Assembly (NCBI GenBank): GCA_963835065.1
Contig: CAWIEK010000068.1
Coordinates: 1 to 64,000 of the forward strand
Origin: an uncultured Chthonomonadaceae bacterium
Lineage (GTDB): Bacteria; Armatimonadota; Chthonomonadetes; Chthonomonadales; Chthonomonadaceae
DNA length: 64,000 nucleotides
Reading direction: 5' to 3'
This document shows, piece after piece, positions 210-61,887 of the stretch; positions within the stretch are counted from its first letter, which is position 1, and the number at the start of each line of letters is the position of its first letter. A program made the position numbers and the translations under genes. The notes below the pieces were generated by a model. The model worked only from the letters and a program-made list of their open reading frames with translations, did no database searches and was not told the DNA's origin.

Positions 210-905
210 TCAGGACGCCGCTACATGGTAGGCATAATTCAGGGAAGAAGCGAACTCCCCGCTGATAGCATCTAAATCCGCTTTGATGTCCGGGAAGGGC
301 GTACCCGTTTTCCCGTAATCAGTTTCATTGGAACTGGCAAACACCACTTTACGAACCATCCCTCGCGCTTGCAGTTGACGCCCAAGTTCCAGTGTTTCCT
401 CGAAAATCTGGCAGTCTTTCGCCGACTGCTTGCCCTTTTGGGACGGGGCGCGTTTGTCACGGACGCGCTGCATGGCGCGTAGATCACACTGATCTTGATG
501 TTCGATAACGCCCGACGCGGCAATAATCCGGTCGCAAGCCTGTTCCAGTCTTTCCGCGAACGCAAATGTGGTGACATCAGGAATCAACAGCGGACTGCCG
601 TAAAGATGCCGGTGCAGTTGCTGAAAATTGTTGGATTGAGAGCGATGTCTTTCCAGCGCCTTGAACAACTCCTCGCGGATGGTAGGTATATTATCGCTCC
701 ATTCACGGTCAAAGAGCGAGGGCAACACAAGCGAGAACGGCAGCGTACCGGCCATCAATTCAGTATCCATGCGCAGCGCAAGTTCCACAATCGGCATCGT
801 GTCGCGGAAAGGACTTCGGATTACATCCAGCAATGTACAGGTATCCAGAACAAGAATGTTCTTGTTTGCGGTGGTGAGAACATCGGCGAGTTCAGCGAGT
901 CGCAC
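210..905 (-). CDS. PIN-domain protein
   Basis: ILVLDTCTLLD N-terminus, KDCQIFE and FASSNETDY motifs typical of PIN-fold nucleases. Confidence 0.7.
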   Translation of the reverse strand: MRLAELADVLTTANKNILVLDTCTLLDVIRSPFRDTMPIVELALRMDTELMAGTLPFSLVLPSLFDREWSDNIPTIREELFKALERHRSQSNNFQQLHRHLYGSPLLIPDVTTFAFAERLEQACDRIIAASGVIEHQDQCDLRAMQRVRDKRAPSQKGKQSAKDCQIFEETLELGRQLQARGMVRKVVFASSNETDYGKTGTPFPDIKADLDAISGEFASSLNYAYHVAAS

Positions 906-1554
906 CTACAACATCCTGTTCTCGTGGAAGGCTTTGCCAATGTTTGGTCAAATCCACGCCGAGTTGGTACTCACGATATAAATCAGAAGCCACATCGCCG
1001 GGGAAACCCTGTTCCACAAGCCATCGCTGCAACAGTTCGGCGCTCAATATCTGCTGATCTCGAACGCTGGCCCCAATAAATGCAACCCATCGGGCATAAT
1101 CCGAAGGATAGGAGGAACCCGTAGCTTTGTTCGCTTTGACGGCGAACTGTTCGAGCAATTCCATGTTTTCAGGTGAAAGGGTGGCTTCAAGCAAAACATT
1201 GTCTGGTGACAAGGTGACATGAAGGTTGTGGCGTGTGGCTTTTTCCTGCACAACATCCACACAGAAGGCTTGAAGAATACGATTGTATTCTTCAGGAGAC
1301 AATTCGCCACGCGGCGGTATGATGTTGGTAACAAGGCCGGTTGTGTTCTCCAGGTTGACGCGCAAGTATAGAGTTGCCGATTTCAATCCCTGTTTTTTGG
1401 GTACGGTAAAAGCAAAATCCCTCACATTAGCCGTTACGGGACTGGACACCTCCTTGTTTAGCGTCCAGCCGTTCGCGCCTTCCTGCAAACTGTCGAGAAA
1501 CCTCTGCATGTCCTCCGATTTACCGGAAATGGTAAGGTCTTGATATACTTTCAT
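892..1554 (-). CDS. Hypothetical protein, operon partner of the PIN gene
   Basis: Long ORF; ATG at 1554 with GGAGG upstream; overlaps the PIN gene start. Confidence 0.7.
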   Translation of the reverse strand: MKVYQDLTISGKSEDMQRFLDSLQEGANGWTLNKEVSSPVTANVRDFAFTVPKKQGLKSATLYLRVNLENTTGLVTNIIPPRGELSPEEYNRILQAFCVDVVQEKATRHNLHVTLSPDNVLLEATLSPENMELLEQFAVKANKATGSSYPSDYARWVAFIGASVRDQQILSAELLQRWLVEQGFPGDVASDLYREYQLGVDLTKHWQSLPREQDVVGATR

Positions 1555-1584
1555 AACTTGGTTGCCTCCCAACTGTCCCGCTCC

Positions 1585-2205: not shown

Positions 2206-4002
2206 CTAGCCGAGTTTAAGGACGGATAGGAACGCTTCCTGCGGGATTTCGATGCTGCCGACAGACTTCATGCGCTTTTTGCCTTCCTTCTGCTTTTCCA
2301 GCAGCTTGCGCTTGCGGGTGATGTCGCCGCCGTAGCACTTGGCAATCACGTTCTTGCGGAACGCCTTAACGGTTTCCGCGCTGATGATTTTGCCGCCTAT
2401 CGCCGCCTGTATCCGCACCTCGTACTGCTGGCGCGGAACCACTTCCTTTAGTTTTTCCACAATTAACTTGGCCCGCTCGTATGCCTTGTCGCGGTGCGTG
2501 ATAAATGAAAGCGCGTCTACCGGGTCGCCGTTCATCTGAATGTCAATCTTCACCAGTTTACTATCCCGATAGCCGCTCAACTCGTAATCGAAACTGGCGT
2601 AGCCTTTGGTGCGCGATTTCAACTGGTCGAAAAAGTCCATCAGGATTTCGGAAAGCGGGATTTTGTAGCGCAGCATCACGCGCTCCGGCGCGGGGTATTC
2701 CAGGCTGACAAACTCACCCCGCCGGTCACGGCACAGTTCCATAATCGTGCCGACATAATCTTTGGGCAAAATCAGCGTGGCGTCCACAAACGGCTCTTCC
2801 GTGAAATCAATCAGCGTCGGATTGGGCATATCAGCGGGGTTGTCCACGTCCATAATCTTGCCGTCCGTGCGATGCACCTTGTACACAACAGAGGGACTGG
2901 TCGCAATCAGGGATAAATCGAACTCGCGCTCCAATCGCTCCTGTATCACGTCCATGTGCAGCAGTCCGAGAAAGCCGCAGCGATAGCCGAAGCCCAACGC
3001 CGCCGAGGTTTCCGCCTCGAAACTTAAGGCCGCGTCGTTCAACTGCAATTTAGACAGGGCTTCGCGCAGTTCGGGATAATCCGCGCTGTCAATCGGATAC
3101 AGGCCGCAGAACACCATCGGCTTGGCTTCGCGGTACGTGCCCAGCAATTCTTTGGCGGGATGGGCCGCGTCCGTAATCGTGTCGCCGACATTCGCGTCGC
3201 CAATGGTCTTGATGCTTGCCGCCACATACCCGACTTCGCCCGTTCCAATCATTTGCCCCACGCGGCGTTCCGGGCCGAACGAGCCGAGTTCAATCACTTC
3301 AAACTCCTTGCCCGTCGCCATAAACCGGATTTTCTGCCCGCTTTTGATATGCCCGTCCACGACGCGCACATAGGAGATAACGCCCAGATACTGGTCGAAT
3401 TTGCTGTCGAAAATCAGGGCGCGAAGCGGGGCGTCGGGATTGCCCGAAGGCGGCGGAATTTTACGGACAACCTGCTCCAGAATGTCCACAATGCCGATCC
3501 CCGCTTTGGCGCTTGCCAGCACCGCGTCGCTTGCGTCCAGAGCCAGCACGTTTTCGATCTCTTCCCGAACGCGCTCCGGTTCGGCTGCGGGCAGATCAAT
3601 TTTGTTGATGACCGGGATCAGTTCCAGATTGTTCTGGTAGGCCAGATTGACGTTGGCGAGCGTTTGCGCTTCCACGCCCTGCGCCGCGTCCACAACCAGC
3701 AGCGCGCCTTCGCAGGCCGCTAAACTGCGCGACACTTCATAAGTAAAATCCACGTGGCCGGGCGTGTCTATCAGATTGAACTCGTACTCCTGTCCATCCA
3801 GCGCGATATAATGCAGGCGAATAGCGGTCATTTTGATGGTGATGCCCCGTTCGCGCTCCAAATCCATCGTGTCCAGAAGCTGCGCCTGCATGTCGCGCTT
3901 GGCGATGGCGTTGGTGGTTTCCAGAATACGGTCGGCAAGCGTGGACTTGCCATGATCAACGTGGGCAATGATGCAAAAATTTCGGATATGGTCTTGGTTC
4001 AT
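2206..4002 (-). CDS. lepA: Elongation factor 4 (LepA)
   Basis: [56 protein letters not shown]. Confidence 0.99.
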
Positions 4003-4154
4003 GTTCAGCTTTCAGCAGAATTCGCAAGCGCAGGACAAGCAGCGCGTTTCAGGCATGGATTCTCCCTGTATTATAGCATAGCCGACAAATTACAGGCGGA
4101 ACGCCGGTATGCGACATTCCGCTCGCGCGTATACTATTGTTTATAACGGCAAAC

Positions 4155-4658
4155 TCAAGACAGAGAAGCAAGAAAAGCGGGAAGGTCGGCAGGGGCAATT
4201 GTTTCGGGGTTGAGGGTTTTCAAACCTTCTGATTCGGCGGCGCGAAGCAGGCGATTATCGGCAGCAACCAGTACGCATATCGGCTCGTCTGCGGACACAA
4301 ACTCGGCGTAGCGCAGATAAGCGGCAAGGATCGCGGCATCGGTGGAATTGATATTATGGGCGTCTGATAGCGCGATCCCTGCAAGTATGTCTTCGTCAAG
4401 AGTGGACAGCAGGGTAAATCGGTTGCTGTTCAGAACGTCGTCTTCCAGCAACAGGCGCGCATCTGTGTAATCTTGCTGCGACAACTGGCGGTTGTTCCGT
4501 TTTCGACGCAGGATGGCGGCGGTTTCCGCGTAACAAATATAGGCTATCGCCATGTCAGGAACAGGTGTTAAGTCGAAAATAGCTTCAACAGTCAAATCGC
4601 CGGCTTCAGGAGCATACTTTTTGCCAAAACCGCTGGAATCCCACAGCAATACAGCCAT
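4155..4658 (-). CDS. VapC-like PIN toxin
   Basis: LLWDSSGFGKKY, AETAAILRRK and DAAILAA PIN motifs; directly downstream of a small gene. Confidence 0.8.
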   Translation of the reverse strand: MAVLLWDSSGFGKKYAPEAGDLTVEAIFDLTPVPDMAIAYICYAETAAILRRKRNNRQLSQQDYTDARLLLEDDVLNSNRFTLLSTLDEDILAGIALSDAHNINSTDAAILAAYLRYAEFVSADEPICVLVAADNRLLRAAESEGLKTLNPETIAPADLPAFLASLS

Positions 4659-4661
4659 CGT

Positions 4662-4955
4662 TTATTCCTCTTTGTTCTGCTCGTCCAGCTTGCTCTGTTC
4701 ATCCAGTTGGCGCATATACTCGTCCTGATCGTAATCATCGCCATAGCGCATGCGCAGCAATTCGCTGGTGAAGATTTTGTCTTCAGGACGAACGCCGTTG
4801 GCAATCATACGCTCTCTGAGTTGCGTTGTGGTGATTGTCGGCTTACCGGAAATACCTGCGCGGGCGTTGACTTCCCGCGCGATACGCCGTAGTTCCGCCT
4901 GCTTTTCTTCACTGGGAATCTGCGGCGATACTCTCTTTGTAGAAGAAGTAGTCAT
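4662..4955 (-). CDS. Putative antitoxin
   Basis: 97-aa ORF with acidic tail, 3 nt upstream of the PIN gene. Confidence 0.6.
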   Translation of the reverse strand: MTTSSTKRVSPQIPSEEKQAELRRIAREVNARAGISGKPTITTTQLRERMIANGVRPEDKIFTSELLRMRYGDDYDQDEYMRQLDEQSKLDEQNKEE

Positions 4956-5068
4956 TCTGTTTCTCCCTGTACTGCATCGGTCACAAGGGCGCGATATTGT
5001 ACGCTGTCGCCGATGTCGTGTTGTATTGTTATTATAGCACAGGACGAGCTTTAGGAAGCGGCGGCGTT

Positions 5069-5983
5069 TCAGGGCGTGGATTCGTGGGCGGGATGGAGAA
5101 GTTCGCGCGGGGCGGGGTCGGAACAGTCGTCAACGGAGCGCAACAGCCCCGCGCCCGTTTCCGGTTCCATTGCGCTTGCCCGGAGCAGGGTGTGGTTGGC
5201 GGTGTCGTAGACGGCGCGAGCTTCGAGCAGGGGCAGGCAATGCTGCGCGGCGCGTAAGACCTGCGGGTCTACGCGGGCGCGTCCGTTCCCGTTTGCCAGC
5301 CGCGTCACCGGGCCAATGGAACGGCCATCCCCTATTTTCTCCAAAGCCCCCAACAGCAAGACCACCAGGTCGGTGTTCACATCGTCGAGGGCGAGATGCA
5401 GGGATTGGCGGTGCGCGTCCGTGAACAGCACGGCATCAGCGGGTGTGAGCAAGGGCAGCAGTTCCTTCAAAGCGCGTTGTGGAATTCCCTGCATGTCGGC
5501 GTAACGCATCGCTTCCAACAGCGGGCCAATCGCGCGGACGTCCGATTCAGGAATGTTGGCGACCAGCACAGTCATTTGCCCGTGCAGTCCGCTTCCTATG
5601 CCCATCACGCCGACCGCACAGGCCGCCAGCCATTCAAACGGCGCAAGCAATGTGTCAATCAGCCCGCCATTGACCATCATTGCCACGCCCGCGACAAGCG
5701 CCGTCCCGCCCGTCAGCGCAAACGCGCGCAGGCAAAACTTACGCTGCCGCCACTTGCGCTTGAAGTCAATCAGCAGCCGGTTGAGCAGTTCCTGTTCCCG
5801 CTCCCATCGCGCCTGCTGCTGCTGAAGCGCCACGTGAGCCAGTATCGGCTCCGATTCCGCCTGTAATGGTTCCGCTTCCACGCGCTCAGAAGCATCATTC
5901 CGCTCACCCTGCAAGATATGCGCGAACACCTCCAAGTCTGCAGCGGTGACAGTCGGCGTGTCTTCCAAGATTATGTTCGGCAT
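5069..5983 (-). CDS. Membrane protein with HEAT-like repeats
   Basis: Two hydrophobic segments, then DVRAIGPLLEA and ALEKIGDGRSIGPV HEAT-like repeats. Confidence 0.7.
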   Translation of the reverse strand: MPNIILEDTPTVTAADLEVFAHILQGERNDASERVEAEPLQAESEPILAHVALQQQQARWEREQELLNRLLIDFKRKWRQRKFCLRAFALTGGTALVAGVAMMVNGGLIDTLLAPFEWLAACAVGVMGIGSGLHGQMTVLVANIPESDVRAIGPLLEAMRYADMQGIPQRALKELLPLLTPADAVLFTDAHRQSLHLALDDVNTDLVVLLLGALEKIGDGRSIGPVTRLANGNGRARVDPQVLRAAQHCLPLLEARAVYDTANHTLLRASAMEPETGAGLLRSVDDCSDPAPRELLHPAHESTP

Positions 5984-8683
5984 GTCTACTCCTCAAGCCG
6001 GTCGTTTCGCTTCTTCTGCCAGCCTCCCAACCCTTCTCAACCTGTTCATGCAGATGTTTCAAATAAGCGCGTTGGTTCGGAGGACGACCAACCTCAGAAG
6101 CGGCTTTATGCAAATGTCGCAGCGTTTCATCGTCACCAAGCTGCTGAAGAGCCTGCCCATACTGCCATGTTGACGTCAACTGATCTGCCGGAGTCTCCAA
6201 GACATACTGAAGATACTGACGCGCCAGCATGATGCGGCGGCGCTCCTTTATCGTTTCGTTCGCCGCGCCACGCACATTCGCTTCTCGGTCGTGCCGCGCC
6301 AGTTTGTAAAGCGCTTGGAACGCGGCCTCATCTGCAAGCCATGCCGCCGCTTCTATCCCGCATCCCCGCTCATGTACGTTTTCGCTGTCAAGCAGACGTT
6401 TCGCTTCCATACGAAGACGCGGCAGGTCAATTTCTGCCAGAGTGCGAGCCGCAATGCGTCGGATGTGGTAAACGCCGTCCGTCAGAAACTGCGCAAGTGT
6501 ATCCGCAGCCTCCGCAGCCTCCAATCCCCGGTAGGCTTTAACAACAGCCTCCCTTGCAGTGGCAGGCCAGTTGAAAACATCCTTAAACGGAAATTCTTGT
6601 ACAAACCGCTCAGGAGCAACCCGCCGCAATGTCCACAAAGTCTCTGTTTCGGCCTGAAAAGGTTTGTTGATAGGGTGTGCGCGTCTGCTCAGTGCGTCAA
6701 GGATTGCGGGTGAAGCGTTTTCTGCGCTTAACTGCGCGAACACCTGTATTGCTTCCCCATAACTCCTATTCTCGATAAGATCGCACACTGCCGAAGTAAA
6801 CTCTTCAGGATGGTTGCAAAACAGAAGCCCCAGGATGAAGGCTTCGCGGTCGGTTAAAGGGCGTGTCACCTTCCATGCAGTCTGTTCAGCAGACTCAAGA
6901 CCAAGTTCGTTTAACAAGTTATGGTGAGTATGTAGGGTTCCCCACCGCGCAAGAACTTCCATCGCTTCAACGGCGTTCCGCTCTGATCCACCTGCCAACT
7001 TCAGCAGCAATGCCTCTGTTCTTTCATCTTTATCAAAGCCGCCTAAAGCGGGAAGCAAATAATGCAGATAAAGAGGATCCTCTTGAAGCAGTCACGACAC
7101 AGCAAAGCAAACACTCGCTCACGATAAGGCGTAACCAGAGCGGGCGCTGTAAACATCACCTGCTGTAATGCGAACGCGCAGGAAATCCAACAATGCGGCA
7201 TTGCTGCTGGGCTTTGCTCCAAACAATCAATTAAGGGAGCAGCATCCTGCATTGTCAATACGCAGGCGATAAAGGCTTCCCCATGTTCTAATGGAGTCGT
7301 GGCGGCAATACTTACATCAGGTTTTCCATACTTAAAAGAAACCTGACTGTCTGTTAAAGCCTGAAATGCTTCTTTCGTGCCGATACTGCCAAGTGCCCGC
7401 AGAGCCGCTAAACCCGGCTCAGTATGTATCCCCCCCGGTTCGCGCCAGTCCGTGCGCTTAATGATATTGTGCAAATTTGGAACAGCTTCGGTAACGCGCA
7501 GGAAGCCAGCCAAGCGGCATATATCGGCAAGAGTAAAGGGACTGGTTTCGTTGAACGCTTCGACAAGCCACTGCCTTGCTTCCGACAAGTCAAGACGCAG
7601 GACAATGTTCCAGCTATGCTCCTTAATTAAAGTGAGTTGTGTCTGCCAAGCCCCTTTGTTATCAGTGTCTAAAACGGCATCCTGATGAAGACATTCAATT
7701 ACCTTGTTCCGCGTGTCAGCATCCGCACGGTTCAGGCTTGTGGACATTGCTGCAAGTTGCTGCGGTTGCTCCAGATCGCTGAGACGTAGATACGGATGGT
7801 AATGGTTACTCATCCGGCCCTGTTCACGTAAATGTTCCGGCGCGTCAGGCTCCAGGCGATGCAGGAAGAAATCTACTACGCGGCCATCATCTATTCCGCG
7901 AGTAATTTCTGACGCTAATTTAAGAGCATTGTAGAGAGCATCAACACCATTCTCCGATCTACCCGCATACTGAATTATCGTGTCCCACACGGCAGAGGCA
8001 ACTTCCGGGTGTGTCTGCGCTGTATCGGAAAGAACATACAACACAGTCTGAAGTTCGGTTTTCGTGTCCGACGAGAACTTGGCGCGAAGCAGGCAATCTT
8101 GAAAATATGGCAGCAGTTTCAAGGAGGCAAGGTGACTTCCACAACGCAGGACAAGTTCCGGTATAACGTCAACTTGCTCCAATACTTTCTGAATTGTCTC
8201 TTCGAGGAAAGCGCGGTCTGAATATCCAAGCCATGCCAGCCCCCACAAGGCGATATATTTGGTTTGCTCATCCGGCGGAGCGGTAACGAAGGCCAGAAGT
8301 TTGCGCTGCAACGCCTCATCCCGATAACCGATGAAGATGAACGTCCAGAGAACATTTTGCACCCGGATAGTGTCTGGTTTATCCAGTTCAGGAAGAAGGC
8401 GGCATATAACATCGTCACGCTTGTGTGGATTTTCCTTCAGCCAGCGTTTGAGCAAGCCATGAATGAAGTGACCCTCATAACCCGAACGTAAAGCACACTG
8501 CTCCAGCAGTTCGTTTTCAAAATCAGGGTACTCCAAATCCCATAGACGATCCAAGCCGGACGAAAGAACGCGCCAGCGCGTATCTTCGTCGTACTCGTCT
8601 GCCCTGTGAAGAAGCGTCAGCACTTCTTCCGGTTTTTTGGCTGCGCGTATTTCGTTGTGAATGTCAGACCATGTTTCGTTCAT
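5904..8683 (-). CDS. Large HEAT-repeat protein (~900 aa), split by an apparent frameshift near 7093; true stop probably near 5986
   Basis: ORFs 7043-8683 and 5904-7058 join by a one-base shift (..CRD / LLQEDPLYLHYLLPALGG..); HEAT motifs LAALRALGSIGTKEA, YHIRRIAARTLAEI, DREANVRGAA. Confidence 0.65.
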
Positions 8684-10758
8684 CAGGGTAGTATCATCCT
8701 AAAGGGTGTATCTGCCAAGTACATTACAACAAAACCGTGCTTCCATTTCCACTCTCGATTGGCAGCGTTTTCGTCCACAATCGAAATAATTCCGCCTGAC
8801 GCCGCCTCTTCAAACAGCTCTTCTGCTTCGTGTTTGCGAACAATGCCTATCTCAACAGCGATACCGGACCATGTCGTTTCTGTCAAAGCGACTGAAACTT
8901 CAAATGTAGCCTTTGCAAGTTCACAAAGCAAGACTGCAAAATTGTTGGTGGATGGCAGATCGTTTCTCTCACGGCGATGTTCATACTTGCTAAGAAACTG
9001 TTTTACAAAAGCATTAGCTACTTTGTTTCTCGCAAGTACATCCCCGCGCAAGGCAGCTTCCGCAGTTCCTATTTCATGTTGCCCTACATCAATAAACGCT
9101 CCAAGCAAACGTGGATGTTTCAGACTCACTATAAAGCTATCCACTTCAGAAGGAACACGCAAATTACGCGCGTTGAAAGCGGCTTCTAACGACATTGGAA
9201 CATCATTTGTCCCGCCAGAACTGATCTGCTTCCACCCTGCATAGTTCCTGATATCTAAGTGTGTGCCCTTTTGCACAACCTCTTGCAAGTCGTTCGCTTG
9301 TAATTCGTTGACCGAAATTATGGCTATATCTTGTTCGGGAACAGTATACGAGGAGCGGCTCCACCTGTTGATATATCGGTGAACATCTTTATACTCTCTG
9401 CCCCGAGAAGTCATAATCAAACATACATCGTTGCGGCTTCGCACATCTTCTATGGTACGCTTTAATACGCTTTCATCTGGAAAATTCTCATCCAAGCCAT
9501 CAAAACCAACAAATAAAAGATGCTTTACGTCAGGGTTAGCAATCGTCAGATGGGTGTAAGGCTGGTCAAGGCTTTGTTCAGCACCAATGCCTCTATTAGC
9601 CCACCTACCAACTGCTTGGATAAACCAGTCGGATTGGAGATCAAAGCAACTTTCCAGCACGACAAAGCCATCAAAACTGTTGCTATTGCGCAGCATATCT
9701 ACTCTGGACTGTGTTAATTGTGTGAGCAATTCTGTTTTGCCACACCCTCCTTCTCCAATCAAAAAGATGAGTCGCTTGTTTTCCTGCAAAGCTTGTTCAA
9801 ACTCGCTTTGGATATCTGAGCGAAAGGCGATCCATTCTGGGCGAGCATTACGAGCTTTGCACCAATTATCCCATTCCGCAACACAATACTGCCCAATACC
9901 TTTTGGCGTAAGTTCGAGAGCATCCTTGTAATCGGTAATCGCTTTGATGAAATCCTTTTTCGTTAGAAGATGCTTGATTTTGATCCCACCCATCAGTTCA
10001 CCGACCAACTGATTTTTAGCATCTTCAATTTTATCGTCTAGCGCTCCGTACCGCTTCGCAAAGCTGATGAATGTTCGTTCAAAATCATGTTGATGTGCCT
10101 CTGTAACAAAATACAGTCCCGGTAAAACCCGTAGAGCCTGCTCAACCAATACCTCATCATGAGCTTTTTTCACCTTTCCATTCCGATGATAATCCGTTAG
10201 CCAGTGTTCCACTAAACTTTTCAGAGGTTGGTTATAAAGCTTTCTTCCCTTTTTGAAAGTTACTGTTAAATTGGCGTATGCTGACGATTTTACTGGAAGT
10301 TGATTGACTTGATTTGCTTTCCATCCAAGAGCATCTCGACACTGTTGAACGATGATTTTGATTAACGCGACAACTGCATGTGGAATACGGTTAGTCAGAA
10401 GGATACAACCACATACAGCAGGACCACCCTGCTTATCAATGTACTCAAGGCTGGAGGCAAAACTTGCCAGTATCTCACGGAAGCTACTTGGATCGAAAGT
10501 AGTTTTAGGATTGCTGGAGTGTTTCGCCTGACACAACAGACGCTTTCCTCCAGCTATAATTGATATATCCTGTCCAGCATCTTCAAAACGTAGCGTATGT
10601 TCTTCATTCGCCGTAAATGTCTTCACAAGCAGGCGCGTGTCGCCATCGGCAGCTTGCAGCGGTTCGTTGTTCAGCGTACCAAGCCCCAACAACATTATCA
10701 TTTGATAATAAAAGCCGAGAAGCGCCCAATCGCCGCCCTGTAATCTTGCGTCTGCCAT
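8683..10758 (-). CDS. PD-(D/E)xK nuclease fused to STAND/NACHT-like ATPase (defence candidate)
   Basis: N-terminal GGDWALLGFYYQ and ED..QD..QAKH; Walker A GEGGCGKT; Walker B LLFVGFDGLDE; C-terminal WKWKH winged-helix-like motif; visibly AT-richer than flanks; ATG at 10758 with RBS. Confidence 0.75.
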   Translation of the reverse strand: MADARLQGGDWALLGFYYQMIMLLGLGTLNNEPLQAADGDTRLLVKTFTANEEHTLRFEDAGQDISIIAGGKRLLCQAKHSSNPKTTFDPSSFREILASFASSLEYIDKQGGPAVCGCILLTNRIPHAVVALIKIIVQQCRDALGWKANQVNQLPVKSSAYANLTVTFKKGRKLYNQPLKSLVEHWLTDYHRNGKVKKAHDEVLVEQALRVLPGLYFVTEAHQHDFERTFISFAKRYGALDDKIEDAKNQLVGELMGGIKIKHLLTKKDFIKAITDYKDALELTPKGIGQYCVAEWDNWCKARNARPEWIAFRSDIQSEFEQALQENKRLIFLIGEGGCGKTELLTQLTQSRVDMLRNSNSFDGFVVLESCFDLQSDWFIQAVGRWANRGIGAEQSLDQPYTHLTIANPDVKHLLFVGFDGLDENFPDESVLKRTIEDVRSRNDVCLIMTSRGREYKDVHRYINRWSRSSYTVPEQDIAIISVNELQANDLQEVVQKGTHLDIRNYAGWKQISSGGTNDVPMSLEAAFNARNLRVPSEVDSFIVSLKHPRLLGAFIDVGQHEIGTAEAALRGDVLARNKVANAFVKQFLSKYEHRRERNDLPSTNNFAVLLCELAKATFEVSVALTETTWSGIAVEIGIVRKHEAEELFEEAASGGIISIVDENAANREWKWKHGFVVMYLADTPFRMILP

Positions 10759-10845
10759 CCTGCTCTCCCCATTGTATACGACATAAATTCTACGTCTGAA
10801 TGGTAAATCCTGCAAACAGAGAAAGGCATTGGCAAGAAAAACAGA

Positions 10846-10881
10846 GAACGGCTTGAACGAGTGTTCCCGTTCAAGCCGTTC
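10846..10881. repeat. Perfect 14-bp inverted repeat with 8-nt loop
   Basis: GAACGGCTTGAACG-AGTGTTCC-CGTTCAAGCCGTTC. Confidence 0.85.
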
Positions 10882-10929
10882 CTCTCAACCCTCAACTTCC
10901 ACCCCTTAACTTCGTAAAGTCTATATCCG

Positions 10930-11270
10930 ACAAAAAACCCAGCAAAAAAGATAAAAAAAGAGCAAAAAACGCGAACCCTTTGCCCAATACAGCCGTCTAA
11001 ACAGTAGATCAACGTCTACTATTCAAATGTTAGACACCGGAAGGGAGGTGCCAGTCCTATGTACCCACACCCCCGTTCGCCCTGACGCTGCTGAGGCCAT
11101 GACGCCTCTCTTCTACAACTTGACACAACGAGACATCGGGCTGGAAGCGCTGTATTGCCAAGATTTCGACGATGACTCTACATATCCTTTTTCTGCCTAC
11201 CCGTTTCCCAACGCTACCAGAACTTCCGCTTGGCAAAAGTCGAGCTTCCCGCCGGTTCGGGAAGTTAAAG
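10930..11270 (+). ncRNA. Dispersed structured RNA/micro-ORF element, copy 2
   Basis: GAACCC 10973-10978, N16, GTCTAA 10995-11000; micro-ORF 11059-11085 MYPHPRSP*; core 11122-11174; 3' hairpin CTTCCCG-CCGGTT-CGGGAAG. Confidence 0.65.
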
Positions 11271-11333
11271 GTTCACAAACGATTAGTCAAAGCGCTAATC
11301 CACTCTCACTCTCCACTCTTCACTCTCACTTGA

Positions 11334-12296
11334 TTAATGATCCGCATAATGCTGGAAGAGTTCGCTGACGGAATTGTCTTCGTGGATGCGGAGAATGGCC
11401 TGCGCCAAAAGGGGCGCAACGGACAGCACCTTGATTTTGGGACTGCGCTTGTGGTCGGGCAGGGGGATGGTATCCGTAACGACAAGAGAACGGAGGGGGG
11501 AACAGTTGACGCGCTCCACTGCCTTGCCCGACAAAATGCCGTGCGTACAGCAGGCGTGGACTTCCGCCGCGCCACGCTCGATCAGGGCTTCCGCGCCCTG
11601 CACGATGCTGCCGCCCGTGTCTATCATGTCGTCAATCATCACGCACCGCTTGCCCGCTACGTCGCCGATAATTTCCATGATTTCCACTTTGTTGGGTTCG
11701 GGGCGGCGCTTGGCGATGATGGCAATCGGGGATTTTAGGTTTTCGGCCAGGGCGCGGGCGCGAGCCACGCCACCCACGTCCGGCGAAACCACGCACGTGC
11801 TGCCATCATACAGCCCTTCGGAAAGCAGATGCTCGGCAATCAGCGGCCCGGCGTACAAATGGTCAACCGGCAGATCGAAGAACCCCTGTATCTGCCCCGC
11901 GTGAAGGTCTATGGCAAGGACGCGGCTGGCTCCCGCCTGCGTAATCAGGTTGGCAACCAAACGGGCGGTCACGGGTTCGCGCGGCTTCACCTTTTTGTCC
12001 TGCCGGGCGTAGCCGTAATACGGCAAAACAACCGTGATACGCGACGCGGACGCCCGCCGGAAGGCGTCAATCATAATCAGCACTTCCATCAGGTTGTCGT
12101 TGACGGGATCACACGTCGGCTGCACGATAAAAATATCCTGCCCGCGCGCCAACTCCTCAATCTTAACGCTGATTTCCCCATCGGAGAAATGGCTGACGTG
12201 GATTTCGCCAAGCGGAACCTGAAGTTCTTCGGCAATGCTGCCGGCAAGCATCGGGTTGGCGTTTCCCGTAAAGATACGCAGGTTGGAACCACACAT
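11334..12296 (-). CDS. prs: Ribose-phosphate pyrophosphokinase
   Basis: [45 protein letters not shown]. Confidence 0.98.
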
Positions 12297-17649: not shown

Positions 17650-17866
17650 GAACTAACCACCCGCTTCGCTAGAGACACAGAGACACAGAGGAAAAACCAA
17701 TACGAGAACGACAAAAGAGAACAAGGAAAGGAAAAGGAACCGCAAAGAGGCAAAGGAAGCAAAGAGGTTTATTCTCTTCTTTTCTCCTCTTCTTCTTTTC
17801 TTCTTTTCTTCTCTGTGTTCCCTCTCTGTGTCTCTGTGTCTCTAGCGCAGCGGGTGGTTAGTTCTC
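17648..17866. repeat. Long inverted repeat between convergent genes (GACACAGA tandem arms)
   Basis: GAGAACTAACCACCCGCT..AGAGACACAGAGACACAGAG with reverse complement at about 17824-17866. Confidence 0.85.
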
Positions 17867-20800
17867 CTCGCCCGGTGGGAAGGTGAACTGCGCGGCTTCG
17901 GCGACGAGGGGCGCGGGATCGTTGCGGTAGGCTTGCAGGCGGGCACGGCGTTCGTCTGTCCATCCGGTGGCGCCTCTGGCCTGCGCGATGAGGGCGGCGA
18001 GGGCCAGACGGCGAATGTAGCGATCCTCACTGCCGGAAAGCGCCTGTTCCAGTTCCTCCAGTTTAGCATCAGGGCGGTTGGCTTGCAGATGCGCCATCCA
18101 GTAGTTCGCGGTCGTATGCAGAATATCAGCATGAAGGGCGCGCGTTGCGGCCATCTGCTCGATTGTGGCAATGATTTCCTCGGTGGCAAGCGCCTGCATA
18201 GTCACTCCCATGCGCAGATTGCCGGTGAGCGGGTCAGGTTGTAGCGCGTCCAGAACGGCGCGGGCAGTCGGCAACAGGCGGGAACGGTTGACGGCAATCT
18301 GCGCATTCAGGGCTGTCACCAGCGTTTGCAGGGCGCGGCGGTTGGGAAGCAGTTCCCGGACGGTTTCACCGACAAGACCCGCGTCGCGTCCTGTATACGT
18401 CATAAAGGCGGCGGTGGACGCGGCTTTTTGTTCATCCCCGACAGGCGAGCGGACGGACTGCAAAAAGTGCGGCAATAGGCGGTGTTCCCGATCCGTGACA
18501 GGCAGGGTTGCGCAGCGATTCAGCGTGTCCAGACGAACGCGGGCATCCGGGTGTTGGAGTAACAGGGCGAGGACGCCGATCAGCCGAAGTTGGGCGAATT
18601 CGGCCAAGCCGGTTGCGGGGATGCGGCTGACATGAGCGGCAACGGCGGCTTCGGGACTGCGGGCAGCGTTGTCCAGTTTGTCCCACGTCGCGTCACGCTC
18701 CAGAAATTGCCAGAACGCGCGCAGCAGGGCGATTCGGGCGTCCCGGTGCAGGTCGCGCGCTTCCAACAAAAGCAATTCCTGATATGCGGCTTCGGTTTTC
18801 AGGTCGCCGAGCAGCCGAATCACCTCTTTGGCAACCGTCACTTTTTCCATTGGCATCCCGCGCAGCAGTTCCATCGCGCGGCTTGCAGGCATTTGCAGCA
18901 GTGCGCGACGCAGAGCGTAAATGGCGATACGGCCCCGGTCATCTCCCATCACTTCCAATAAAGCAGGGATGCCCGCACCGCTGTCCAGTTTCGCCAGGGC
19001 GCGCAGGGCGGCGTCACGAACGGCGAGGGTTTTGTTCTCAAGCCGCGCCAGATGTGCCAGCCGTTGTGGAAACACGGCTGGCAGGGCGGCAAGTTGGGTA
19101 ATTACCGCGTGAAGTGAAGGCGTATCGCGGCCTCTGTCCCATGTCACTTCCGTCAGGACACGGGCGAAAACCTGCTGCTGTGTGGCGGTCCAGCGTTCAA
19201 AACCCTTGGTGAGAGGCAGGACAAAGCGCGTACTGCCCGTTGAAAAGCGGCCTTTGTACGCTTGAAAACCCAAAAACGGGGTGAGTAAATCCTGCCGATG
19301 CCGATGCAGGTAGGTATACACGACCGGGCGCGTAGCCCAACTCGGATCGGCGGCAATCAGGGCAGGCACAAGCTGTGCCAGCCGTTCGCGCCGATGTTTT
19401 GCCAGCAGGTTCAGCGCGGTTTCCGACTGATGCTGCGCAGCCGGGGTCTGCGCTATCCGCTCCAATATAATCGCCAGTTCATCGAACACGCGCAAGCGCC
19501 GCCCGATACTGCCGGCCAATCGCAGCAGAGCATTCCAGCCTTCGCGTGTTTCCCATTCGTGCAGCACGGGCAGCAGAATGGGCACAAGCGTTCGCGTGTC
19601 GCTGTCGGAAAGCCGGTTTTCCAGTTTCGCAATGTGCAGCGTGCCCAATTCTTTTGCCAGTGTCGCCATCCATCCGGCGGACCAGTGCGGAGTGAACTTC
19701 AGCAAATTGACAACTAAAATCTTCATTGCGATTGCGCTTGCAGGAGAGAGGTCGGCGGCATCCAGTCCGCTGCGCAAAATTTGGGCAAGGTCGTCCAGAT
19801 GTTCCGGCTTCCAAATGCCCGGCGGCAGTCCAGTAAGGCTGGAAAGCATGGCAAGCCGAACCGAGTCCTGCTCGTTTTTACGCGCCGTTTGAATTTCCAG
19901 CAGGTCGGATAAGTGGCTGCGGCAGTAGCGAACCGCGTTGGCAAGGGCGCTATGGGCGAGAACGCGCAAGTCGGGGTCGGGATTGCGCAAGAACGGATCG
20001 AGGATTTGCCGCGCCTCGTCCCAAGGCAGAAACGCGGCATAAGGCAGGCGTTCGGCAGGACGCGGAGCCAGCGCGGGCAAATTCAGGTGTCGCCGCGCTT
20101 CCCGCTCGCGCAAGTCCCGCGACAATCCGCCGACAATCCAGTCGGGAACGCAGCCATCCTGATTCTGCCAGCCTCGCCCGAATTGCGCGAACAGGCGATC
20201 CCGTACTTCGGGAGTGAGACGACGCTGAAAAATGTGGCTGAGGAGATGTGTCTGAGCGCCATAGCGTTCAAGAAGGGCTGTGGCGCGTTCGGCATCGAGG
20301 CGCGGCAGCAGGCGCGGCAATGGCAGCATGGGGCGAGATTGGCTGCGCAGCACAAGGTGGGCGATTTCACTCGGCAGGAAGGAAGCTAAACGCTGAAACT
20401 GCAAATGGGTCAGGGGAACATGGCGCAGCAGAGTTTGTATTAGTATCAACGTGGCCTGCGGGCGCGTTTCCGCCGTAAAAGGCAGGACGGCATTGGCGCG
20501 GTACGTCAATCCGGCATCCGGGCTGTCGGCGCGTTCCGCCTGCGCCTGCAAGGTTTCCAGCGCAATATCGGGATGAAAACGGGCAAGCCGCGTCCAATGA
20601 TAGGCTGCAAAACGTTCCACAACCTGCGGCAGCAGGTCACGCGCCCTTTGCGCGGAACCGAACGGCAGGCACTCGCGCAAGCCGTCCTCGTCCTTGCGCG
20701 CTGCCATTGCTTGCAGACACGCTTCGATTACGTCATGGCGGTCATGCTTGTGCAGACCGAGCAACAGATTACGCCACCGTTTCGGCTGAATGCTGTCCAG

Positions 20801-21079
20801 CGCGGCAACAATTTGCTCGCTCGCGCCGATCTGCGTTAAAATAGCCGCCGCGCTCCGGCGTATCAGTTGCGATCCGTCCGTCAGCATCCGCAGGGCGCGT
20901 TCCCCGTTGCGGCTGCCATAGCATGAGTGCAGCGCCAGCCAGCGCAAATCAAAATCGCCCTGCTCCATCTCGTCGAACAGGGGGGTGTTTTCCGCCTGCT
21001 GTCCCAGCGCAATGATGCGTTTCATGCGCCCACTGTACGGCAGCGTTTCCAATTCCGCCTGCAATTCCGCTAAGTTCAT
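17858..21079 (-). CDS. Large HEAT/ARM-repeat protein
   Basis: ~1070 aa, L/A/R-rich helical repeats (NPDPDLRVLA, HPDARVRLDTL, DPAPLVAEAA). Confidence 0.75.
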   Translation of the reverse strand: MNLAELQAELETLPYSGRMKRIIALGQQAENTPLFDEMEQGDFDLRWLALHSCYGSRNGERALRMLTDGSQLIRRSAAAILTQIGASEQIVAALDSIQPKRWRNLLLGLHKHDRHDVIEACLQAMAARKDEDGLRECLPFGSAQRARDLLPQVVERFAAYHWTRLARFHPDIALETLQAQAERADSPDAGLTYRANAVLPFTAETRPQATLILIQTLLRHVPLTHLQFQRLASFLPSEIAHLVLRSQSRPMLPLPRLLPRLDAERATALLERYGAQTHLLSHIFQRRLTPEVRDRLFAQFGRGWQNQDGCVPDWIVGGLSRDLREREARRHLNLPALAPRPAERLPYAAFLPWDEARQILDPFLRNPDPDLRVLAHSALANAVRYCRSHLSDLLEIQTARKNEQDSVRLAMLSSLTGLPPGIWKPEHLDDLAQILRSGLDAADLSPASAIAMKILVVNLLKFTPHWSAGWMATLAKELGTLHIAKLENRLSDSDTRTLVPILLPVLHEWETREGWNALLRLAGSIGRRLRVFDELAIILERIAQTPAAQHQSETALNLLAKHRRERLAQLVPALIAADPSWATRPVVYTYLHRHRQDLLTPFLGFQAYKGRFSTGSTRFVLPLTKGFERWTATQQQVFARVLTEVTWDRGRDTPSLHAVITQLAALPAVFPQRLAHLARLENKTLAVRDAALRALAKLDSGAGIPALLEVMGDDRGRIAIYALRRALLQMPASRAMELLRGMPMEKVTVAKEVIRLLGDLKTEAAYQELLLLEARDLHRDARIALLRAFWQFLERDATWDKLDNAARSPEAAVAAHVSRIPATGLAEFAQLRLIGVLALLLQHPDARVRLDTLNRCATLPVTDREHRLLPHFLQSVRSPVGDEQKAASTAAFMTYTGRDAGLVGETVRELLPNRRALQTLVTALNAQIAVNRSRLLPTARAVLDALQPDPLTGNLRMGVTMQALATEEIIATIEQMAATRALHADILHTTANYWMAHLQANRPDAKLEELEQALSGSEDRYIRRLALAALIAQARGATGWTDERRARLQAYRNDPAPLVAEAAQFTFPPGEEN

Positions 21080-21177
21080 TCCGTTTTCACCTGGTTCTGT
21101 TTTCTGTCGTTTTGCTCCTTCTCTTTGACTTGCCAACCCACCCATAAGTTGCAGGCAAACAAATGCTCAGGCAAACG

Positions 21178-32033: not shown

Positions 32034-32131
32034 TTATACGGAAAGACGTTTTTGCACCTGCTGGACGAGGGTTTTGAGTTCGGGGTCGAATTCCATCAAG
32101 CCTTTGACGCGCTGACAGGCATACACGATGG
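32034..32131 (-). pseudogene. Diverged duplicate of the dnaA 3' end
   Basis: Aligns without gaps to 39870-39967; encodes IVYACQRVKGLMEFDPELKTLVQQVQKRLSV*. Confidence 0.9.
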
Positions 32132-32229
32132 CAGCGACGCGATAGTTGCCGCGTTGTGGTTCATAGCACATTGCGTAGATAATTCTCGTACAGAGGACAT
32201 CGGAGGGCAGGAGAGCGCTCGGATTAGCC

Positions 32230-33818
32230 TCGGAGAATGCCCGCGCTGCGCAGAGCGATAGAAACTCGCCATATCGGGACAGGGCTGACCACGCAGAACG
32301 CCGCGTACTACCGCCAGGTTCTCCTCTTCCTGATACAAGATGGCGCGCAGACGGCGCAGATGCTCACCGAATAGCCCATTTTCTTTGGGCGCGTCGGCTT
32401 CCAGGTCGGCATAATCCCAATGCCGAACCTGCATCTCGTAATAGCCTTTACCAGCGAGATAAGGATGCCCGTTTATGAGCGCATGGAAGCGGGCAATGTC
32501 TTCGGCGGATTGGAGCAGGGCGTCGCAGGCGGCGTTGAGTTTTGCCATCTGGCTCAGGTCGAAGTCCGAAAGCGTGACCTGCGTTCCGACATTGAAGGGC
32601 GATTGCGTGGTGTTGTGAATAAACAGGTGGGGTTCGGTGGAGTGCGCAATGGCAAGCGTGAGCCGTTTCCAGCCGCCGTTGGGATCGCCTGCCCGCTTGT
32701 TGTGCCAGGAGCGGAACAGCCCGCAAGACATCACTGGCGTAAGGCCGCCCAAAGATGCGGTCGAACTCGTCTATCGCCCACAGCAGCGGCTCCTCAAAGG
32801 CACGCAGGACATTGCGCTTGAGAATGTCGTCCAGATTGTCGTTGGCTCCCAGGTACGTCGTCCCACAGGTCGCGTATGCGCAGGTTGAGGTCGAGTTCGC
32901 GCAGAGAGTTTGCCGGCAAGGGCGCGCAGGAAAACTATACGCCGGATCGCCATCTGCTCTTCGGTCAGGCTCTGCAGGTCGGTCCAGACGACGCGGAGTT
33001 GGCGTTTGACGGGACGGCATCCAGGAGCGCGGGCCAGGAGGGAAGTCTTCCCCATCTGCCGCGCCCCCTTTACCAGCACGATGCTGTTGCGGCGCTGAAC
33101 GGCGGCATGGAAGGCGACATCGGTTTCCCGAACGATATAGCGGCGGCTGGCAACGTCCAGCGCGCCCCCGGCTCCATTGGCGGCTTCGACGGGAATATCC
33201 GCAAGTGCGGCGGGCGCGGTTCTTGCGTTTGCAGGCGGGCTGGAATTGCCGCAGGCGGGAGAAACGTAGTTCCAGAGGGTAAGCTTTTGGTCATGCTTGA
33301 CGGTATATTCGCCGAGCTGATGGAGGTGCGGCTGCCACTCGTCAAAGACCGAGCAGCAGGCCGGCGTAGGCGTCGGAAAGGAGAATATGCCCCGCCTCGC
33401 CGCAGTCCATGACGCGCTGCGCGGTATTGATGCCGCCTCCTAAAACGTTGGCATTGTCGTCCGCGCCCGTGACGAGAAAGACCGCGCCGATATGCAGCCC
33501 CATGCGCAAACAAAGGTCGGACTGCGGACGGAGGGCGGAAGCGATTTCGACTGCGCAGCGAAGGGCGGCATTCGGGTTTTTGAGGAAAACAAGCGCCATG
33601 CCGTCGCCCGTGTCACAGCGTACCATGTCCTGCGTGGAAGCGTCGGGCAGACGGTTGAGCGCGGTGCGGGCAAGGTTGTGCAGCCGCGCTTTCTGACGCG
33701 CTTCCTCCTCGTTGGAAAGCAGGGTAAACCCCACAATGTCAAGGAAAAGCGTATGGGCGGTGACAGCAGGCAACAGGGTTTCGAAAGTCATGGGGACCCT
33801 TTCGGCGGCGGAGTACAT
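32230..33818 (-). pseudogene. Adenylate/guanylate cyclase - AAA_35-type STAND fusion, multiply frameshifted
   Basis: LFLDIVGF and TGDGM..LRMGLHIG..GGGINTAQR (cyclase); KGARQMGKTSLL, WAIDEFD, SPFNVG, GHPYL in several frames. Confidence 0.75.
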
Positions 33819-38771: not shown

Positions 38772-39107
38772 ATGACAATTACACTGGACTTACCCCCGGA
38801 GTTGGAAGGGCAAATACAGCAGGTGGCGCGGGCACAGGGCAAGGATGTGGCTGCCTTCCTGCTTGACAGCATCCGTCAGCGCTTGCGCCATGACGTACTG
38901 CCCGAAGCGGATGCGCGTCTGCTTCAGATAATCAATGCCCCGATTGCTCCAGCGAGGGATAGATTTCCAGCCCCGAAGCAAGCGCCCCCTACGTTCCCCA
39001 AGACTCCAACAGCAACCATCCCACTAAAACAATCCCGCAAAAAAGACAGAAAAAAAGAGCAAAACAATGCGAAAAAAGCGAACCCTTTGCTCAACTCAGC
39101 CGTCTAA
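38772..39107 (+). pseudogene. RHH-like antitoxin gene whose 3' part runs into element copy 3
   Basis: MTITLDLPPELEGQIQQVARAQGKDV..LLQIIN, then read-through of A-tract DNA; its stop is the TAA of the element's -10 box. Confidence 0.55.
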
Positions 39108-39437
39108 ATAGCAGTACAAACGTCTACTACACAAACACAAAGGCTGAACGTTGGTAGTTCCTATCAACTATCAACTACACTAACAGGAAGGGAGGTGCAT
39201 GAGAATGTCCCTACACCCCTCCCGCCCGCCTTGACGCTGCTGCGAGGTCACGACGCCTCTCTTCTACAATCTGACACAACGAGACATCGGGCTGGAAGCG
39301 CTGCATTGCCAAGATTTCGACGATGCCTCTACATATCCTTTTTTCTGACTGCTCTTTTTTCATCTGCCGCCTGTCCAATGCACTTTCAAGACTCCCGTTG
39401 GCAAAGGCCGGAATTCCCGCTGGTTCGTGAAGTTATA
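39015..39437 (+). ncRNA. Dispersed structured RNA/micro-ORF element, copy 3
   Basis: GAACCC 39080-39085, N16, GTCTAA 39102-39107; micro-ORF 39205-39234 MSLHPSRPP*; core with one substitution; extra insert shared with copy 4. Confidence 0.65.
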
Positions 39438-39510
39438 GATTTATGGACTTTTTTATTCTCGCAAAGATGGGAAGACCGCTAACCTCTGTAGAAACGGAGT
39501 AGAACGAATT

Positions 39511-52411: not shown

Positions 52412-53430
52412 ACAATGCCTCATTCTCTTCCTTCGGCGGGCGCAGCATCAGGGCGCGAATTACGTCCGGGCGCGTGGCGTCCCTCGAAGAGAATACGGTA
52501 CAGGGCGGCGCACAGGGGCATTTCGATTGCAGTGCGCGCGGCCAATTCGCACAAGACGCGGGTTGTCGGGACGCCCTCGGCCACCTGTCCCAATTCGGCC
52601 AGAATAGCGTCCAATTGCCGGCCCTGTCCCAGAGCATGGCCTACGCGGTAATTGCGCGATAGGTGGCTGGCCCCGGTTGCCACCAGATCGCCGAAGCCGG
52701 ACAGGCCGCGAAATGTTTCCGCCTGCGCGCCCTGCGCCACGCCCAATCGAATGGCTTCCGTCAGGCCCCGCGTCATCAGAGCGGCTTTGGAATTGTCGCC
52801 AAACCCCAGCCCGTCGCACACGCCCGCGCCAATCGCAATCACGTTTTTAATCGCGCCGCCGAGTTCCACGCCGATAACGTCCTGCCCGGTGTACACGCGA
52901 AAGGTCGGCGCGGCCTGCTGCGAAAACAAGCGCTGCGCCCGTCTTGCGGCTTCCTTATTTATAGACGCGGCGACACTGGCGGATGGCATCCCCTGCGCCA
53001 CTTCAATCGCTAAATTCGGGCCGGAAAGCGCGACGATGCGTTCGGGCGCGTCGGGCAGAACTTCGGCAAGAACCTGACTCATGCGCAGTCCCGTGCCTTC
53101 TTCCAGCCCTTTGGCGGCGGAAAGCAGCAGGGCGTGGGGCGGCAAAAAACCGCGCGCCTGCTCCGCAATGCCGCGCATGGCTCCACTGGGCACGGCGAAA
53201 ACAACGGCTTCCACATTATGGCAGGCTTCGGCAAGATCGGCAACAGGCGTAATCGCCTCGTCAAGCCGAAAGCCGGGCAGGTACGCGCGGTTTTCACGCG
53301 CGGCTTGCAGCAGTGCGATGAGGGCGGGACTGCGCGCCCACAGCCGTACCTGCTGCCGATTGGCAGCCAGCAGAACCGCAAGCGCCGTGCCCCAACTCCC
53401 CGCGCCCAGCACGGCGACCGGCGCGGAAAT
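52410..53430 (-). CDS. gpsA: NAD(P)H-dependent glycerol-3-phosphate dehydrogenase (apparent frameshift near 3' end; start uncertain)
   Basis: VLGAGSWGTALA, LSGPNLA, GGAIKNVIAI, GDLVAT..SRN, AEGV; tail DVIRALMLRPPKEE in another frame after a C-run. Confidence 0.93.
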
Positions 53431-53870: not shown

Positions 53871-54240
53871 GGCAATGTCTCCAAAACGGAGAAATATGTA
53901 GAGTCATCGTCGAAATCTTGGCAATACAGCGCTTCCAGCCCGATGTCTCGTTGTGTCAAATTGTAGGAGTGAGGCGTCGTGACCTCGCAAAGCGTCAGGG
54001 CGCACGGGAGGGGTGAAACATAGGCCTGCACCTCCCTTCTGGGTTAGGGTTCTAGGGTTTTAGGTTGTTAGTTGTTAGGTTGTTAGTTGATAGGAACTGC
54101 GAACGTTCAGCCTTTGTGTCTGGATAGTAGACACTTGTGCTATTTAGACAGGAGGAATGGGGAAAAGGTTCGCTGTTTTCGGATTGTTTGGCTATTTTTT
54201 TCTGCTTCTTTTTTGGTGTGATTTTTTGCGGGAGGGTTGC
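53871..54240 (-). ncRNA. Dispersed structured RNA/micro-ORF element, copy 4
   Basis: Minus-strand GAACCT 54171-54166, N16, GTCTAA 54149-54144; micro-ORF 54021-53995 MFHPSRAP*; identical 53-nt core; heptamer-expanded insert. Confidence 0.65.
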
Positions 54241-61706: not shown

Positions 61707-61780
61707 AAGCGCTGCCGTTCAAACAAACTTTGTGGGGGCGCAATCAAATTGCGTCCCTGCTTCCTCTTTTCCTTTTCTCC

Positions 61781-61810
61781 TCTCCGTGTCCTCCGTGTTC
61801 TCCGTGGTTT
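61781..61810. repeat. Solo arm of the CACGGAGRA nonamer repeat family
   Basis: CTCCGTGTCCTCCGTGTTCTCCGTGGTT, same as the right arm near 62903-62930. Confidence 0.85.
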
Positions 61811-61887
61811 ATTCTCTTGTTCGTGTGACTTCTGCGCGGCAGGCGCGTAGAAAGAGTGTCATCAATTTTGCGGGGAGGAGGGACATC

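Follow-up and report, generated by a model that had tools for sequence, protein, structure and literature searches.

A conserved gene pair for a predicted nuclease-STAND ATPase and a separate HEAT-repeat protein in an uncultured Chthonomonadaceae bacterium

In the characterized Avs and bacterial NACHT (bNACHT) receptors of the literature examined, sensor and switch are part of one chain. In SeAvs7, the sensor holds the ADP-bound NTPase and a Cap4 domain in the off state, and ligand binding allows the nucleotide to be exchanged, a tetramer to form and DNA to be cleaved; the nucleotide is contacted by Arg395 and His545 (accessible part of PMC13581612). Here we describe two overlapping genes, gene A and gene B, on the reverse strand of the first 64,000 nucleotides of contig CAWIEK010000068.1 (the window) from an uncultured Chthonomonadaceae bacterium. 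Gene A is predicted to encode a nuclease-STAND ATPase and gene B encodes a HEAT-repeat protein; this two-gene architecture is real, recurs in relatives and does not stem from a fault of the assembly.

Like SeAvs3 (PDB 8dgc) and SeAvs7, the locus combines Cap4-like motifs, weakly recognizable here, with a STAND module and winged helix and with a conserved arginine and histidine where nucleotide contacts are predicted; downstream follows a large module of helical repeats, which here is gene B. However, SeAvs3 and SeAvs7 are single chains with TPR-like sensors (accessible part of PMC13581612), whereas here the chain stops after the winged helix and the HEAT-type repeats form a protein of their own. 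The bNACHT proteins share the D[GAS]hDE Walker B, and restriction-endonuclease-type effectors and HEAT sensors occur in that group, but they are encoded by single genes, rarely in poorly conserved operons; the repeat-less bNACHT01 (clade 14) has short C-terminal extensions, and no partner HEAT gene is named for it in the accessible text (bioRxiv 10.1101/2022.07.19.500537). Avs8 (PD-lambda-4) is likewise a two-gene operon with the nuclease-NTPase first; Avs8A alone suffices, however, and Avs8B is dispensable and without known homologue (accessible part of PMC12236752). The CARD-NLR system LypABC is likewise NLR-like and encoded by several genes, with products that interact physically, but there the effector is split from the NLR and LypB keeps TPR-like repeats, whereas here the switch is split from the sensor (accessible part of PMC13236601). 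Other multi-gene STAND systems have been described, none with this layout being found in the accessible part of that account (PMC7159879). No description of a nuclease-STAND protein with a separate HEAT sensor was found in a literature search that left subscription literature largely outside.

The survey of Lee et al. (2026), the largest to date and comprising 90 families, dropped C-terminal regions below 400 amino acids (aa) before sensor clustering (accessible part of PMC13581612). Since the part of gene A that follows the NTPase domain is about 200 aa long, systems like it would lie outside these families; the terms 'split', 'HEAT' and 'Armatimonad' do not occur in the searched part of the supplement. 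If the HEAT sensor is indeed free and exchangeable, as considered below, the entire class would escape surveys that demand a sensor of at least 400 aa on the switch chain.

The junction between gene A and gene B

The original prediction, made from the sequence alone, had noted a TGATG in which the stop codon of gene A overlaps the start codon of gene B, and this overlap is seen in the sequence (Table 1). A stop/start overlap was found in all five loci seen in full, which belong to two phyla, with a purine-rich stretch upstream of the gene B ATG at each junction; the TGATG suggests that A and B are translationally coupled. In the congener G261 the two proteins have 668 and 889 aa, in G188 673 and approximately 1240-1260 aa, and in the Desulfuromonadaceae locus L047, from the other phylum, 663 and 1035 aa. 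In G082 the HEAT gene is cut by the contig end and resumes on another contig. A further three homologues, with lengths of 695-705 aa and 67, 43 and 42% identity, were compared as proteins and stop at the same winged-helix motif. All eight family members end 12-21 residues past this motif.

The junction is also covered by a related-strain contig from sequencing run X1 (2226 bases, about 89% identical), which spans positions 8540-8800 with no gaps and has no listed change in 8643-8694. At the start of gene B, 9 of the 15 changes in this contig fall on third codon positions, and 7 of 13 changed codons are synonymous, versus 1 of 12 in each other frame. These changes favour the assigned frame.

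A search with the STAND protein in 401 genomes of the phylum matched five, including the window's own; G261, G188 and G082 contain true homologues, and the match in G335 was rejected since it comprised only the P-loop. In a profile search, for which two candidates were scored per genome, a full-length copy was found in the same 4 of the 401 genomes, and the matches in 86 of 90 genomes were rejected as P-loop only. Scanning the genome collection for the motifs gave 18 loci, namely those of G261 and G188, the new L047 and 15 others that lie outside the gene A family. Separately, locus L023 was rejected as a transposase-like open reading frame (ORF) with a chance motif. The known range of the family is a lower bound. 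The original prediction had asked whether homologues are split or fused: they are split in 5/5 loci, and no fused form of the gene A STAND was found among 5462 candidates of 1235-3525 aa, which is weak evidence.

Predicted domains and relatives of the two proteins

All gene A motifs named in the original prediction are present in the 691-aa ORF. The N-terminal motif GGDWALLGFYYQ covers residues 8-19 and is followed by E59, D64 and Q77-A-K79, a nuclease-type set in which Q77 and K79 are kept in 8/8 family members and D64 in the five closest. Walker A reads GEGGCGKT, Walker B FDGLDE (residues 419-424), and the winged-helix motif WKWKH is followed by 17 residues and the stop, so that the chain stops after the winged helix, without sensor repeats. 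D420, D423, E424 and R452 are invariant in 8/8 members, H674 in 7/8.

The gene A product (P0001) has matches to Pfam NACHT, NPHP3_N and nSTAND3, all sub-threshold. The NACHT Walker B signature is D[GAS]hDE (accessible part of bioRxiv 10.1101/2022.07.19.500537), to which the DGLDE of gene A fits; together with the Walker A, the motifs of a STAND NTPase are thus present. In the structure model (mean predicted local distance difference test (pLDDT) score 68), an AAA+-like nucleotide-binding domain precedes a helical domain and the winged helix. The model matches Apaf-1, Orc1/Cdc6, plant resistosomes, CED-4, NLRPs and SeAvs3, the last giving the longest alignment listed (688 columns). In a wide fold search, Avs5, BrxC, Cdc6, NLRP3, NLRP9 and Avs4 were tied at Z 11-12 over residues ~287-688; for Avs4, Avs5, NLRP3, Apaf-1 and Orc1/Cdc6 the root-mean-square deviation was 5-6. 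At the N-terminus gene A carries GGxxAxxGFxYQ and D...QxK, which we take to be the motifs of Cap4-like nucleases. A PDB sequence search with P0001 alone gave no relevant match. The nuclease assignment, which is weak, is less secure than that of the ATPase. The nearest ESM Atlas clusters contain unnamed proteins of 612-736 aa, the top one with 71 members, most commonly from Planctomycetota; these clusters are a lead that sensor-less STAND proteins may occur more widely.

No model of PADLOC (2023 release), NCBIfam or Pfam claims the pair, the homologues are likewise unclaimed in PADLOC and NCBIfam, and no Avs model came near significance for the whole protein (the best, Avs2 with E 9e-5 for P0027 and Avs4 with E 0.06 for P0001, did not pass). 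The assignment to a described system that the original prediction had named as its refutation was thus not encountered in PADLOC and NCBIfam. The one-chain order of effector, STAND and sensor that characterizes Avs and bNACHT proteins is absent, as the STAND protein ends early in 8/8 members and the HEAT protein is separate in 5/5 loci. Judged from these comparisons, the feature is real and conserved and resembles Avs and bNACHT systems, yet it is not a member of them.

An intact HEAT ORF of about 900 aa, as originally predicted, does not exist in the assembly. Gene B reads as an ORF of 546 aa (8683-7043) and an open stretch of 395 codons in another frame (7091-5907). The end formerly placed at 5904 marks the read-through frame, and the likely true stop is the TAG at 5988-5986, 2 nucleotides before the next gene. 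The ~898 codons of gene B are reached only with both frameshifts discounted; the intact protein of G261 has 889 aa, and the first frameshift does not interrupt the HEAT profile (profile positions 1-497, then 499-890). Both breaks are absent from the related strain, for which run X1 contigs were compared, runs X2 and X3 being without coverage of the locus. The assembly is prone to such errors: frameshifts were found in 19 of 109 orthologue pairs with G261, corresponding to ~0.17 per kb, some of the 109 ORFs being antisense duplicates. At this overall rate, a stretch of 2.7 kb would have at least two frameshifts with a probability of 0.08; if the calculation is limited to -1 shifts, a rarer class (6/23 shifts) that includes both gene B breaks, the probability drops to 0.007. 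We regard assembly error as the somewhat more probable cause of the breaks, with real inactivation a substantial if lesser possibility, in which case the window copy of the pair may be a pseudogene. Decay does occur in the family: a metagenome copy of the STAND gene beside a kdp operon is cut by several insertion sequences (L020-L022; L021 7992-11659, L022), and all that is left in G230 is a HEAT remnant of 226 aa amid mobile genes. Frameshifted-looking ends are also present in other ORFs of the window (32096-33020, 52420-53412, 54680-55519, 60359-61828), which matches the assembly indel rate.

The HEAT proteins P0003 and P0008 reached 40.5 and 72.4 bits with Pfam HEAT_2. The model of the intact G261 protein is an all-helical solenoid (pLDDT 87, predicted template modelling score 0.83) that resembles CAND1, the importin-beta family and SF3B1; these matches are generic and agree with a HEAT solenoid. 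The HEAT fold searches showed no Avs sensor among the matches listed, which says little against a kinship, and 12 of 13 hits of another search were rejected as generic HEAT proteins with 7-12% query coverage. The HEAT partners in G188 (L007 5472-9254) and L047 (1004-4111) carry an additional C-terminal extension of ~100 aa that is not HEAT-like and is absent from the window and G261 proteins. A second, unrelated HEAT-repeat protein of 1095 aa is encoded at 17858-21145 (-) of the window, with a G+C content typical of the genome.

The proposal that the HEAT protein acts as a sensor in trans gained support from two fused proteins of 1378 aa in G303 and G338. Gene B aligns to them over 764 columns (hhalign probability 99.9%, E 1e-33, with thin profiles), and the homologous region, residues 592-1374, lies in the sensor position behind an HSDR_N-like nuclease and a STAND module. 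These proteins differ from our pair in being one chain, with another nuclease and a poorly aligning STAND. Because gene B aligns and the STANDs barely do, the HEAT module is common to different STAND clades, as part of the chain in one clade and as a separate protein in the other, and we regard it as a shared sensor module rather than as a demonstrated fission. The Avs7 sensor shows the same spread across clades (accessible part of PMC13581612). The G338 gene lies directly after a type I restriction-modification operon (hsdR).

A possible two-chain receptor and its alternatives

On balance we favour the interpretation that the pair is a conserved two-gene module forming a two-chain anti-phage receptor of the Avs/NLR type, its defence function, binding and nuclease activity being predictions by analogy. 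In this reading the predicted DNA nuclease, of Cap4-like type, and the ATP/ADP switch would come from gene A and the sensor, acting in trans, probably from gene B. By analogy with SeAvs7 (PMC13581612), coupled translation might yield an approximately 1:1 complex in which B, bound to the winged helix and nucleotide-binding domain of A, holds A in an ADP-bound off state. Binding of B to a phage protein would then let A exchange ADP for ATP, R452 and H674 of gene A likely corresponding to R395 and H545 of SeAvs7. Exchange would lead to oligomerization of A and DNA cleavage, by which infection would be ended. The patchy occurrence of the pair, its low G+C content, its different site in the congener and the defence neighbours in G261 and G188 speak for this reading. 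If this is true, the split between winged helix and sensor would mean regulation in trans, and the HEAT sensor may recognize a phage target that has not yet been assigned.

A more tentative idea, which we consider rather doubtful, is that of a family of bacterial NLRs whose HEAT sensor is free and exchangeable and moves between unrelated STAND clades; a single sensor with bound ligand could then activate many subunits of the nuclease switch, as in the sensor-helper NLR pairs of eukaryotes. A natural split would be a bacterial parallel to these pairs and to CED-4. It would surprise specialists and would give a direct way to test the swapping of sensors. The known family is small.

Several observations weigh against the two-chain receptor. 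On the side of gene A, the Pfam NACHT score of P0001 (18.7) falls short of the cut-off of 26.7, which among the seven homologues only P0027 (29.9) passes (P0004, 26.0), and the fold of the ATPase matches Orc1/Cdc6, BrxC and TnsC equally well. An N-terminal profile of five sequences has just two PDB matches at E<=10, both weak: to LmuA of Lamassu (E 0.21, over the GG-AL-GF-YQ motif) and to residues 77-139 of SeAvs3 (E 0.88, over the QxKHS and TNR motifs), both presumably Cap4-type nucleases. Residues 35-86 are modelled with pLDDT below 50, leaving the restriction-endonuclease fold poorly modelled, and a Pfam scan of gene A and its homologues returned no nuclease family. The last 38 codons of gene A, with 7 non-synonymous versus 1 synonymous change in the run X1 contig, are weakly constrained. 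To these points are added the broken state of gene B in this assembly, the alignment probability of 1.3% between the STAND of the 1378-aa proteins and that of gene A, and the small number of clear defence neighbours, found at two of the five split loci (G261 and G188) and not in the window. In Avs8, moreover, the second gene is dispensable (accessible part of PMC12236752).

Of the alternative explanations, one is that B is mainly an inhibitor, similar to an antitoxin or guard, of a constitutively active A that is freed when infection removes or destroys B. We consider this unlikely. CED-9 restrains the sensor-less CED-4 in a comparable manner, and CED-4 is among the fold matches of gene A. The tight stop/start coupling in 5/5 loci and the C-lobe of the SeAvs7 sensor, which keeps that enzyme off (accessible part of PMC13581612), would also be in line with it. 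Nevertheless, B is a full-length homologue of a region in sensor position and far bigger than an antitoxin would have to be, and if the gene B breaks are real, an intact A lives with a truncated B. Quite unlikely, too, is a conflict system with a non-phage trigger (a plasmid, other foreign DNA or DNA damage), or a B that serves as scaffold or loader instead of sensor. Such a role could be read from the ties of the ATPase fold with the DNA-binding AAA+/winged-helix proteins Orc1/Cdc6, TnsC and BrxC, from the generic scaffolds among the HEAT fold matches and from the position of the window locus outside any defence island; on the other hand, gene A has NACHT-type Walker B and winged-helix motifs, the same HEAT module lies C-terminal to STAND in one-chain proteins, and no transposase gene was seen beside the intact pairs of G261, G188 and L047. 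The more specific reading as Tn7/TnsC was rejected for the lack of a transposase and for the NACHT-type motifs.

Two further alternatives concern the junction itself and assume a single product of about 1600 aa. Its synthesis by programmed -1 frameshifting or read-through would fit the -1 frame that gene B occupies with respect to gene A in 5/5 loci, but ATGA and TGATG overlaps give this frame by construction, and at every junction an ATG sits at the stop, preceded by a purine-rich stretch. A TAG five codons ahead of the ATG closes the -1 frame in the window, where inspection revealed no slippery heptamer; recoding appears very improbable. That the junction is an assembly error within one Avs-like gene, a caveat already raised in the original prediction, might be suspected in an assembly with ~0.17 frameshifts per kb and two more breaks inside gene B. 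However, the same junction is present without gaps in the related-strain contig, the same split recurs in four other genomes, and none of the 5462 longer candidates matches the STAND profile (again a weak argument), so that this explanation is unsupported and effectively refuted.

Genomic setting

As noted originally, the locus is richer in A+T than its flanks: the G+C content is 0.446 in gene A (0.41 at third codon positions) and 0.50-0.53 in gene B, compared with 0.56-0.63 (0.67-0.73) in four other genes of the window. The pair is patchily distributed (4/401 phylum genomes) and occupies a different site in the congener G261, where the prs-glmU and lepA regions are without it and the pair is flanked by a type I restriction gene on one side and a serine recombinase on the other. 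The flanking genes in G188 are those for DUF4365 and DUF4062, with a DUF3854 gene close by; DUF4062 has been reported as anti-phage (accessible parts of 10.64898/2026.05.01.722283 and 10.64898/2026.06.25.731849). The L047 pair has a RecG-C-like gene and a YhcG gene on its two sides. No defence neighbour was identified in G082, whose neighbours were outside the library scans. In the window the pair is located between prs and a gene of 304 aa, with a PIN toxin-antitoxin-like pair nearby.

Table 1. Coordinates of the features of the gene A-gene B locus and of the fused relatives
Feature	Position	Strand	Remarks
Gene A	8683..10758	-	ATG at 10758, TGA at 8685-8683; 691 aa; predicted Cap4-like PD-(D/E)xK nuclease, helical linker, NACHT-type STAND ATPase and winged helix
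Predicted Cap4-like nuclease core	10387..10758	-	Residues ~1-124; G8, G9, Q77, K79 and N123 invariant in 8/8
STAND module	8686..9900	-	Residues ~287-691; Walker A 335-342, D-G-h-D-E Walker B 420-424, R452, W-x-W-x-H 670-674
TGATG stop/start overlap, gene A/gene B	8681..8685	-	Unchanged and gap-free in run X1 contig; ATGA in four other loci
Gene B, HEAT/alpha-solenoid	5986..8683	-	~898 codons; broken in assembly near 7090 and 6021
Frameshift 1, gene B	7072..7093	-	Run X1 contig: net +4 bases at 7072-7090
Frameshift 2, gene B	6019..6023	-	Run X1 contig: 1 extra base at 6021; ~12 codons before likely stop
Promoter-like site TTCAGA-18-TACAAT	10771..10800	-	Just upstream of gene A start; consensus match only
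Hairpin, 17 pairs with T-tail	10882-10845	-	Upstream of gene A
Dispersed repeat, ~150-350 bp	10925-11280; also 1855-2200, 39032-39441, 53893-54042	+ (10925-11280)	182 merged copies in genome
1378-aa HSDR_N-like nuclease-STAND-HEAT proteins	G303:C1 (L015 7637-11773); G338:C70 (L016 6110-10246)		48% identical to each other

The toxin-antitoxin-like pair (window 4155-4955, -) consists of a 97-aa gene followed by the PIN-domain gene, and another gene pair (226 and 231 aa) is present at 210-1572 (-). Promoter-like sites number 9 in 4000-11400, versus 5.8 +/- 2.4 in shuffled sequences. The 64-kb window gave no tRNA or Rfam hit.

Directly downstream of the G261 pair there is a two-gene set (L006 7121-8941) with no Pfam or NCBIfam hits; a set ~6 kb upstream of the G082 pair (L099 5086-6996) looks similar to it by eye, unaligned. 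The G261 island also contains two tandem, paralogous-looking genes of ~500-580 aa (L006 3380-7052) with no Pfam hit. An unrelated large P-loop gene with scaffold gaps and no Pfam or NCBIfam hit follows directly downstream of the G188 pair (L007 1631-5447).

The repeat upstream of gene A, which the original prediction had numbered as element copy 2, is present, but its position says little, since it is one of 182 copies in the genome. A link of the pair to this repeat was rejected given this copy number and the lack of a listed G261 match near the G261 pair (40 of 128 candidates scored). The repeat gave no Rfam hit. A promoter-like part and strong motifs resembling ribosome-binding sites are present in it, and its conserved core can be read as a short peptide, TPLFYNLTQRDIGLEALYCQDFDDDSTY in the window copy. 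Related copies occur in G261.

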